From NCBI GenBank assembly GCA_963745835.1, contig CAVUZH010000003.1, positions 1,152,001 to 1,216,000 of the forward strand: a stretch of 64,000 nt of DNA. The letters are read 5' to 3'. Positions 45,401 through 47,161 of the stretch are shown here, in pieces. The notes below the pieces were generated by a model. It saw only the letters and a program-made list of their open reading frames with translations. It was not told where the DNA came from and did no database searches. Position 1 is the first letter of the stretch; each line of letters starts with the position of its first letter. The translations under genes and the position numbers were made by a program. The DNA comes from an uncultured delta proteobacterium. GTDB lineage: Bacteria > Desulfobacterota > Binatia > UBA9968.

Positions 45401-45628
45401 CGAGAAATCCTCCTTTGCAGCGATCCGTTAAATAGAAGCACCCTATCATCTTTCGCGTATTCATCGATAGCTCGTGGCCGCGCCGAAAGGCTTGCTCCTT
45501 GGCTCCGGTTTCGGAATCCCCCAGTCCAGTAGTGTCCAAGATGCTCAAAAAGACCTCAGAGGTAAGGCGCGCGAAGTTCGATGAGCTGAGACTTTCTATG
45601 AGCCCTGTCAAGCCCCATCGATTTTATT

Positions 45629-46855
45629 TCACGCTGCCTGGCGCAATTTCTGTCGTGCAATGTTGGCCAAGTGGTGGGTTTCGTCATAAGGTTTATGATC
45701 TCTCCACAGCACAAAAATAATTTTCAACCACTTCGCTCCCAAAGCCCGAAGTGCTTGGGGATGGCTGTGTCCTCTGGCCCGTTGGTCTCGATAAAAGGCC
45801 TTGGCCCACTGGCTGCGGTTTATCGAGATAAAAGCAAACCAGTAGACGGCGTAGCGCAATTGTTTGTTACAAGAAAACCGAAACTCAACAATGCGACTCT
45901 TGCCACTCGATTTGGTCACCGGGACTGCTCCCGCTTCGGCCTGAAGGTGCTTAAAGGATTCCCATCGAGCTGGGGCATCTCCCAGCTCGGCCCAAAGGGC
46001 CGGCAGCAACGTTCCGCTTTTCCCTCCCGGCAGCTTCTCCACAAGCCTAGCGGCCGGTGTAGAGGCGAAAAAACGTTCGACCTTGTCGCTGTACTTCTCA
46101 ATGCTTCGCAGCGAAGCCTCAAGCTGATCGAGCAGCACTTCGAGCAACTGCGCCTTGGCTCTGACGACGTGATCGGGAACCACAAGTTGCGGCTTTTTCA
46201 GCTCCTCCCACCGCTTGGCACTGCGTGCTTTACCAAGATGAGGATGCTGCTGGGCAAATCGGCTCCACTGCTTACGGCTAAGCTTCGAGAGCGCCGTTGG
46301 CGTCGAATACTGCTTGAGAAAGTCTACTGCTATACGAGCCTCCAGATCCCCAAAAACCTCCACCGGTCGAGGATAGTACTCCTTGAGAGTGAACTTGAGC
46401 TGATTGAGCAAACGCGTTTTGTGACGCACCATTCTTTGCTGATCCCGGGTAAGCAGCTTAAGCTCCTGGGCCTGCTCAGAGCTTGGCCGAAGGGGCCTGA
46501 GGTGACCGTGGTCGGTTCGAAGAAAGTCCGACAGTACCCAAGCGTCAAAGGGGTCGCTCTTGGATTGACTCATGCGAAACCGGTCCCGAGCACGATCCAA
46601 GACCTTGGGATTGACCGGATAAACCACTACCCCATGATCCAAAAGAAAATCCACAATGCGCCCGTGCGGCTTCTCGATCGCCGCCCACAGCTCCACCTGC
46701 TCAGCTCTGCTCTGATTGAGCCAATGCGCCAACTCCGCCAGCCCTTCAGGGTTCTCTTGGACTTTCATCTCCATTACCTTTATCCCGTTCTCGTCGCCAC
46801 CGTAGAGCTGGTGTACTCGGTCTGCCCAATCTACTCCCAGATAATATCGTGGCAC
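45629..46855 (-). CDS. IS110 DEDD recombinase/transposase
   Basis: GVDWA (D), AIE (E), KSDPFDA (D,D); PVTKSSG catalytic Ser; CNKQLR. Confidence 0.96.
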   Translation of the reverse strand: MPRYYLGVDWADRVHQLYGGDENGIKVMEMKVQENPEGLAELAHWLNQSRAEQVELWAAIEKPHGRIVDFLLDHGVVVYPVNPKVLDRARDRFRMSQSKSDPFDAWVLSDFLRTDHGHLRPLRPSSEQAQELKLLTRDQQRMVRHKTRLLNQLKFTLKEYYPRPVEVFGDLEARIAVDFLKQYSTPTALSKLSRKQWSRFAQQHPHLGKARSAKRWEELKKPQLVVPDHVVRAKAQLLEVLLDQLEASLRSIEKYSDKVERFFASTPAARLVEKLPGGKSGTLLPALWAELGDAPARWESFKHLQAEAGAVPVTKSSGKSRIVEFRFSCNKQLRYAVYWFAFISINRSQWAKAFYRDQRARGHSHPQALRALGAKWLKIIFVLWRDHKPYDETHHLANIARQKLRQAA

Positions 46856-46879
46856 TTTGTTGTCCTCCTTCTTTGCTTA

Positions 46880-47075
46880 CTTTACTCCAATAGCTGTGAA
46901 CGGAACGTTAGCCTTATATCGGTCCTCGACGGGACAACTTTCCATAGAACTTTTGACTCCGTTCTTTTGCTGGTCGGGACAGTCTCAGCTAGATCCTCTA
47001 ACGGAATCGCGTACGTAAGGTCCTCTAACCAGCAAGCTTCTTGGACGACAATGCAATATCTATCATCGAGTATGA
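46880..47075 (-). ncRNA. Putative IS110 bridge RNA
   Basis: Two stem-closed internal loops with segments matching the target flanks and the donor junction; boundaries approximate. Confidence 0.8.
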
Positions 47076-47161
47076 CTACAGTAATATAAGGCGTACGCTT
47101 CAGTACGTTGAAGCGCGTCGCCCGAGCGCAACGACGCCTATGAGACTTTTTCAGCAGCTTA

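Follow-up and report, generated by a model that had tools for sequence, protein, structure and literature searches.

A predicted IS621-type bridge RNA in an IS110-group insertion sequence within a REP-like repeat of an uncultured Binatia bacterium

The RNA-guided recombinase system of IS621 from Escherichia coli (PMC11208160; PMC11208158; PDB 8wt6) is built around a CT core and scarless ends, with a -35 box in the right end and a -10 box in the left end. The left end of IS621 encodes a bridge RNA with a set order of parts, inner hairpins, left and right guides of opposite polarity, and handshake dinucleotides on the 3' side of an AG that pairs with the core; the target lies in a repetitive extragenic palindrome (REP), and the recombinase has a DEDD and Ser-Gly catalytic set. 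All of these features recur in an insertion sequence at positions 45589..47090 (minus strand) of the DNA analyzed here, a stretch of 64,000 nucleotides from an uncultured delta proteobacterium of the Binatia lineage (assembly GCA_963745835.1, contig CAVUZH010000003.1, positions 1,152,001 to 1,216,000; this whole stretch is called the window). In comparison with IS621, the element has a recombinase of 408 aa instead of 326 residues, with ~19% identity, a right target guide of 7 nt as compared with 4 nt in wild-type IS621, a left target guide of 7 nt without the core as compared with 9 nt including the core, and a left donor guide that lacks core pairing.

Two further systems are informative. 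ISCro4 (IS622) of Citrobacter rodentium (10.1101/2025.05.14.653916; PDB 9t56) has the same fold class and a bridge-RNA logic with handshake guides, but its 341-aa chain is 17% identical to the present recombinase and its host is an enterobacterium, whereas the present element belongs to a soil-type clade (Candidatus Binatia, Rokubacteria, Nitrospirales). ISPpu10 of Pseudomonas putida (10.64898/2026.03.19.712850), which is likened here by its description, also targets a REP sequence in which the left target is the arm of a hairpin; there, the hairpin and a U-rich end form a terminator-like junction that would keep the RNA silent until circularization, an arrangement that was tested and called a state-dependent switch and that is predicted for the present element. 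ISPpu10 is reported to lack a 5' stem-loop, and one is predicted here. The kind of system, the RNA layout, the promoter logic, the handshake guides and the hairpin-plus-terminator target context have already been described, and the element is a distant addition to a known kind of RNA-guided recombinase, ~19% identical to IS621, and not a new kind. It is a clean textbook case of an RNA-guided insertion sequence that can be decoded from sequence alone. Among the literature matches listed there was no publication on its clade, which may nevertheless be included in the orthologue tables or covariation maps of the known papers.

Boundaries, copies and empty target sites

The insertion sequence comprises 1,500 bp plus the CT core, which is written at both junctions, one CT being that of the target. 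Read along the minus strand from 47090 to 45589, it lies between two CT dinucleotides, beginning CT-TATATTACTG and ending TTGACAGGGCTCATAGAAAGT-CT. Comparison with empty sites places the left CT core, the junction of left target and right donor, at 47089..47090 (minus strand; AAGCGTACGC-CT-TATATT) and the right CT core, the junction of left donor and right target, at 45589..45590 (minus strand; CATAGAAAGT-CT-CAGCTC). The element consists of a non-coding left end of 235 nt (47090-46856), one open reading frame and a right end of 40 nt (45628-45589). A long non-coding left end with a short right end distinguishes the IS110 group from IS1111, in which the order is reversed, and, as in other members of the group, the element lacks terminal inverted repeats and does not duplicate its target.

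Three copies that match over exactly 1,502 bases are present in the genome (7.28 Mb, 25 contigs). The 235 bases of the left end are identical in all three, and each of the other two copies has 6 differences from that in the window. The copy on contig 14 has 6 substitutions and an open frame with the replacements R215L and L404M, and the copy on contig 16 (C16:89929-91430) has 4 substitutions together with a 1-nt deletion and a 1-nt insertion in the right end. Occupied and empty sites differ by exactly 1,500 bp around a single CT. Because the empty copies join the flanks around one CT and the element copies match exactly, the ends are those that were first noted. Outside these ends the three loci are similar (about 85-93%) but not identical, being copies of a repeat of ~120 nt. 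A longer element, suggested by the similarity of the copies over ~60 nt of flank, was considered and rejected: the flanks are 85-93% alike as compared with ~99.6% for the element, and they occur joined to each other at many empty sites.

All three copies are inserted at the apex of this one REP-like hairpin repeat, which begins with GGCTGCTGAAAAAG and ends with CTTTTTGAGCAGCC (for example, C18:273080-273200). The repeat was collated at 53 places, five of which are junctions of the three element copies, and at many of the others it is joined around a single CT. Flanks and empty copies were compared to delimit the halves of the repeat that the element splits, a left half at 47091..47160 and a right half at 45541..45588 (both minus strand). 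The predicted fold of an empty copy is a single long hairpin (-52.6 kcal/mol) that has the insertion site at its tip. The sub-variants of the repeat differ in their apical sequence, and therefore only some of them carry the target of the element. This target is composed of the left target CGTACGC (47091..47097, minus strand), which is identical to the left target guide at 47015-47009 and forms the 3' arm of a small apical hairpin, CGTAC-TGAAGC-GTACG (47107-47092), and the right target CAGCT (45584..45588, minus strand), which together with the CT core is the reverse complement of the right target guide AGCUGAG. The complete 14-nt site, CGTACGC-CT-CAGCT, has 16 unoccupied exact occurrences in the genome as compared with 0.07 expected from base composition, and all 16 are inside the REP-like repeat; when up to one mismatch is allowed, there are 35 sites. 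The specificity of the element accounts for its presence in only one REP-like repeat. The three near-identical copies and the 16 free target sites make recent activity plausible.

A separate remnant of 90 nt (C14:580170-580259) is 100% identical to the left end and begins at the CT. It is in a variant copy of the repeat with the left flank CCGATGTACGC and stops within the target-binding loop after GATTCCGT; the bases that come next, CATCGG, are the complement of CCGATG in the left flank.

The predicted left-end RNA, its guides and the putative junction promoter

Homologues were obtained by a protein search, in which at least 1,700 proteins scored E <= 1e-20 among 8,000 candidates, and by a scan of species-representative genomes. 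The best 120 protein homologues are 69-100% identical to the recombinase and mostly have 408 aa. The genome scan gave 68 loci (L063-L072, which are partial or distant matches, were left out), mainly from metagenome-assembled genomes (MAGs) labeled Candidatus Binatia, 'delta proteobacterium', Rokubacteria/Methylomirabilota, Nitrospirales and Verrucomicrobia; one of these, L005 from a Binatia MAG, has 95% protein identity, the same kind of site and the same flanks. The target loop was parsed by means of anchors in 54 of 59 sources, with L023, L046, L052, L054 and L058 dropped as their anchors were not found, and distinct guide pairs were kept for the guide counts. Poor matches of the left guide were retained (L014, 3/8; L019, 4/8; L047, 4/8), as was L008, which was mis-scored at 4/8 by the register window and whose core class was re-read by eye.

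The left end is predicted to encode a bridge RNA of ~180 nt of the IS621 type, in the order 5' stem-loop, target-binding loop and donor-binding loop, with an inner hairpin in both loops. The 5' stem-loop (47060..47081, minus strand) is a single-sequence prediction from the minimum free energy fold of the left end, in which it occupies positions 8-29. The two modules were delimited by the RNAalifold consensus and pair counts from 51 homologues. The target-binding module (46967..47035, minus strand) has an outer stem UUGCUGGU (47035-47028)/ACCAGCAA (46974-46967), a stem GGAC (47023-47020)/GUCC (46980-46977) and an inner hairpin at 47008-46992. The donor-binding module (46898..46964, minus strand) has an outer stem GAACGGA (46964-46958)/UCCGUUC (46904-46898), a second stem and an inner hairpin at 46935-46922.

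The homologous left ends align well, as a fixed scaffold that is interrupted by a few short variable windows. RNAalifold applied to the 51 distinct sequences gave five helices with 31 consensus pairs; the helices close two internal loops, each with its outer stem and its second or GGAC/GUCC stem, and there is a hairpin inside each loop. Compensatory changes on both sides are found in 15 of the 31 pairs (for example, GAUCC/GGAUC to GAGCC/GGCUC). With the structure fixed, 97.1% of the cells are paired, as compared with 26-50% when the partners are slid by 1-3 columns, and none of 500 column shuffles reached the observed value of any of five measures. A covariance model built from the alignment (R1) matched exactly the three copies in the genome, with 147 bits each, when 150 of 1,170 first-look candidates were scored.

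The polarity of the guides is that of IS621, the left guides having the sense of the top strand and the right guides being complementary to it. In the target loop, the left guide CGUACGC (47009..47015, minus strand) has the same sense as the left target and would pair with the bottom strand; it would do so without the core because it is followed by GA and not CU. The right guide AGCUGAG (46984..46990, minus strand) comprises 5 nt and an AG that pairs with the CT core of the top strand. In the donor loop, the left guide UGGAAAGU (46937..46944, minus strand) is identical at 7 of 8 positions to the left donor in the right end, TAGAAAGT, and has a G where the donor has an A, a possible rG:dT wobble; it would not pair with the full core because UG comes next. 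The right donor guide, AUAUAAG (46913..46919, minus strand), is the complement of CT plus TATAT.

In the homologues the guides change with the flanks. The right target guide matches its own right flank at 5 of 5 positions in 30 of 38 loci and at 4 of 5 in the other eight, whereas guides paired with the flanks of other loci are perfect matches in 6.2% of 1,364 pairs (mean, 2.19/5). For the left target guide and the last eight bases of the flank, at least 7 of 8 positions match in 23 of 41 loci, as compared with 3.6% of 1,630 cross pairs, and the mean match is 6.49 with the own flank and 3.90 in cross pairs; several of the mismatches are G for A, for which rG:dT pairing is still allowed. The left donor guides follow the right ends (TAGAAAGT/UAGAAAGU, TAGGAAGT/UAGGAAGU and GAGAAAGT/GAGAAAGU, as end/guide), and the right donor guides follow the left ends, CTTATAT occurring with GAUAUAAG and CTTATAC with GGUAUAAG.

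In IS621, a dinucleotide on the 3' side of each right guide pairs with the opposite substrate once the top strands have been exchanged (PMC11208158, Hiraizumi et al.). The corresponding bases of the present element are AC in the target loop (46982..46983, minus strand), the complement of the last two bases of the left donor, GT, and GC in the donor loop (46911..46912, minus strand), the complement of the last two bases of the left target, GC. In 45 of 45 loci, the first of these bases in the target loop is the Watson-Crick partner of donor position -1; its counterpart in the donor loop is that of target position -1 in 44 of 46. Before the exchange, the handshake base of the target loop is mismatched to its own target in 44 of 46 loci.

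A promoter divided between the two ends of the element had been proposed in an earlier note on this DNA. The -35 box TTGACA (45606..45611, minus strand) is in the right end, separated from the core CT by 15 nt, and the -10 box TATATT (47083..47088, minus strand), which is also part of the right donor, is in the left end, so that the computed joint of right end to left end reads TTGACA-17 nt-TATATT. Left ends start with CTTATA in all 48 homologous loci for which this end was located. The -35 hexamer in 45 right ends of homologues is TTGACA in 39, TTGACG in four, TTGATA in one and TTGACT in one. Among the loci with both ends, joining the ends would place a putative TATA-type -10 box 16-18 nt from the -35 box in 41 of 41, and exactly 17 nt from it in 31. 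In the integrated locus, a promoter scan found no sigma-70-like site upstream of the RNA on the minus strand, and one site at chance level on the plus strand. The apical target hairpin followed by the T-rich end CCUUAUAUUA was flagged as terminator-like. Since this junction is terminator-like and there is no such promoter upstream of it, the RNA would be expected mainly from the circle; by analogy with ISPpu10, it may be silenced in a state-dependent manner until circularization.

By homology with the described systems, RNA production, circle formation and catalysis would proceed as follows. (i) Excision would join the right end to the left end across CT and thereby build the TTGACA-17 nt-TATATT promoter. 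(ii) The junction promoter would transcribe the bridge RNA and probably also the recombinase gene behind it. (iii) After exchange of the top strands, the handshake bases AC and GC would pair with GT of the donor and GC of the target. (iv) A tetramer of the recombinase would swap strands at CT through a phosphoserine intermediate.

Public sequencing runs were available as 24 rows, all of them Logan contigs, of which the runs X1, X5, X16 and X18 were compared. Contigs from RNA libraries that cover the element have 90-95% identity to it and are no proof of transcription; being only 90-95% alike, they come from a relative. The contigs of public runs were counted neither for nor against transcription, excision or habitat. 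Five contig joints that skip 1,500-1,691 nt, with sides of 20-30 nt, were set aside as probably deriving from empty copies of the repeat elsewhere. X16 and X18, RNA libraries from different studies, have practically identical contigs and depths and are possibly one data set.

Several results weigh against interpreting the element as a complete insertion sequence that works like IS621. The fold of the single sequence is no better than that of shuffled sequences (z = -0.87; 40 of 200 fold as well), although it does draw both stems; it was kept out of the evidence, and the structural support comes from covariation. An Rfam scan of 45300-47400 found no family, with four chance-level matches to snoRNA or lncRNA far below the gathering score. 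The column-shuffle controls overstate significance because the homologues are related to one another, and the slide control for the RNA pairs and the cross-pair control for the guides are fairer. The fit of the handshake and donor positions is one of complementarity and not of covariation, as these positions are nearly invariant. Neither left guide makes the core pairing that is strongly preferred in IS621, and at one position the left donor guide departs from Watson-Crick pairing. One of the three copies, that on contig 16, is frameshifted near codon 76 by a deletion at element position 462 (leaving 94 + 352 aa), a change that may reflect a genuine pseudogene or an error in the assembly. Finally, no joint of right end to left end was found in the assembled contigs of the four public runs, in which rare circles would be invisible.

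The first two of these results speak for another explanation, in which the guide matches are products of chance or of the repeat and the left end is only a 5' untranslated region or a protein-binding end. However, the guides change with the flanks in dozens of homologues at unrelated sites while the scaffold stays fixed, with compensatory changes, and we give this explanation almost no credence. It is very probable that the element is a complete IS110-group insertion sequence working like IS621. The earlier note had read it as a complete IS110 system with the IS621 bridge-RNA layout, and the Pfam and NCBIfam domains described below, the exact copies, the covariation and the guide-flank matches all bear this out. 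Each motif it named is where it placed it on the minus strand, the matches of guides to target and donor are far above the cross-paired controls, with the 16 empty sites in addition, and the split junction promoter has the predicted spacing and is conserved in all homologues with both ends.

Recombinase, mobility and pairing with the core

The recombinase gene (45629..46855, minus strand) encodes 408 aa from a GTG start, with AAGGAGG upstream at 46870-46864. The protein matches PF01548 (DEDD_Tnp_IS110; E 7.2e-31), residues 6-162 being aligned with positions 1-155 of the 155 in the profile, and PF02371, the C-terminal Tnp domain (E 2e-10). It scores 148 bits with the NCBIfam equivalog NF033542, 'IS110 family RNA-guided transposase', barely above the cut-off of 140. 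Residues Asp9, Glu61, Asp101, Asp104, Ser317 and Gly318 are invariant in an alignment of 18 homologues, in agreement with the suggestion that the DEDD and Ser residues are intact. We take Asp9, Glu61, Asp101 and Asp104 to be the DEDD set from their motif positions; for Asp9 and Glu61 this presumption is based on general features of the family and on the Pfam coverage.

By sequence, the only solved relatives of the protein are the ISCro4 (E 7.3e-9, the best match) and IS621 (E 4.3e-8) transposases. Asp101 and Asp104 align with ISCro4, Ser317-Gly318 aligns with the SG of the ISCro4 Ser loop, and KSDPFDA aligns with SKTDAVDA. Residues 31-155 correspond to 35-157 of ISCro4 and residues 244-396 to 172-325, and the positions of the gap indicate ~74 extra residues between the two blocks. 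These are in the coiled-coil region, between the RuvC-like and Tnp alignments. In an AF2 model (pLDDT 78.3, pTM 0.71), five short helices separate two long ones, at 127-160 and 228-264, and Ser317 lies in a loop (298-329) modeled with low confidence, as expected for a mobile Ser loop. The ten best Foldseek matches are chains of IS621 and ISCro4 (E ~1e-10, 17-20% identity, TM 0.37-0.47), and these are followed by archaeal Nop5 and eukaryotic Nop56/58 of box C/D ribonucleoproteins, in line with a published evolutionary link between IS110 recombinases and Nop5.

The element could look intact and yet be immobile, its copies being relics of a past burst with no transposition in this host now. The frameshifted copy and the 90-nt remnant of the left end are in keeping with such a history, as are the 16 perfect sites that are still empty, the wobble in the left donor guide and the lack of a circle junction in the contigs compared. 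In contrast, two copies have open frames of 408 aa with two amino acid differences between them, the three RNA regions do not differ, conservation extends to every catalytic position, an element with 95% identity occupies a site of the same kind in another assembly (L005), and rare circles cannot appear in contigs. We therefore consider immobility unlikely, though it deserves to be kept in mind. The missing core pairing or the non-Watson-Crick donor position could lower the activity of a mobile element.

The earlier note had also regarded the element as a candidate recombinase with different rules, on the basis of its size, its 7-nt right guides and its left guides that stop before the core. 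The size is not distinctive, as 408 aa is inside the range of 300-460 aa given for IS110 recombinases (PMC11208160, Durrant et al. 2024). Nor are the right guides, which consist of the core-pairing AG and 5 nt: some orthologues naturally have longer right target guides, and 7 bp improves the performance and specificity of IS621 (PMC11208160). The third point holds for the element in the window, in which GA and UG follow the left guides, but not as a peculiarity of it, since the same condition is found across the clade. All four guides of IS621 pair with the core as well, and such pairing is strongly preferred (PMC11208160); this is a feature of IS621 and not necessarily a definition of the family, and the present element does not have it. 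For the 5' side of the loops, the same paper gives 8-9 nt among orthologues, and it refers to 'considerable mechanistic diversity'.

The right guides of the clade pair with CT, the AG being conserved in both loops, and the core is CT in every locus seen. The two bases after the left-target match in 41 loci are CT in 13, C and another base in 16, and neither core base in 12. In 10 of 51 donor-loop sequences AAGU is followed by C; the position after that is held by a G that belongs to the inner hairpin and never varies, so that the core T is matched in 0 of 51. Left guides without core pairing are a real trait, belonging to the clade rather than to this element in particular.

This trait could mean that recombination follows different rules within the same family, the bottom-strand core not being read by the RNA and being either left to the protein or unnecessary. 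A large clade of soil bacteria, with at least 1,700 proteins at E <= 1e-20 and ~19% identity to IS621, would then have given up RNA pairing with the bottom-strand core, always in the donor loop and in a third of the target loops, and its check on strand exchange would be unlike that of IS621. Such rules could affect which cores are tolerated, when or how efficiently the bottom strands are exchanged, or how insertion is balanced against excision. The bases that follow the left guides in the window and in the clade agree with this proposal, as do the preference of IS621 for the core in all four pairings and the distance of the protein from IS621 and ISCro4 (17-20% identity) with its ~74 extra coiled-coil residues. 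Against it, flanks that terminate in several C residues leave the register uncertain; on the top strand the RNA still reads the core, given that CT is paired by the right guides in all cases and is the only core seen; and the variation is perhaps already covered by the orthologue data of PMC11208160. As the proposal is drawn from sequence comparison, the claim of different rules is a weak one, and a loss of the RNA check on the bottom-strand core throughout the clade is, in our judgment, quite improbable. If it were true, both the target hairpin and the longer coiled-coil insert might contribute to the bottom-strand check, and the rules for designing cores and guides in programmable recombination could relax or shift. 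Irrespective of this, a distant orthologue with naturally long right guides and coreless left guides would be a useful, if incremental, addition to tool development, and a clade with ~50 loci and their flanks is a convenient natural data set for comparing guide rules.

Other IS110-type genes and the glycine-reductase neighbors

The genome contains five further PF01548 (IS110-type) recombinase genes that belong to other subfamilies, one of them with an internal TAG (C13:576250-576678, C22:70372-70791, C19:502671-503087, C5:169818-170243 and C15:12236-12661). The bridge-RNA model R1 of the clade has no match at these five genes.

The neighbors of the element, which are on the same strand, are a gene of the glycine/sarcosine/betaine reductase component B type (47162-48469) and grdB (44339-45400). 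The piece at 45401-47161, which holds the element and the repeat, separates these two co-oriented genes; the element splits a glycine-reductase gene pair, and 16 free sites for it remain elsewhere in the genome. The terminator-like left junction may interrupt co-transcription of the pair. There is an in-frame TGA in grdB at 44339-44341; when it is read as selenocysteine (U354, in the context VATUGTCS), the product is extended from 353 to 437 aa (44086-45400, minus strand), as expected for glycine reductase selenoprotein B. Directly after grdB is the start of a paralogue of the upstream Gly_reductase gene.

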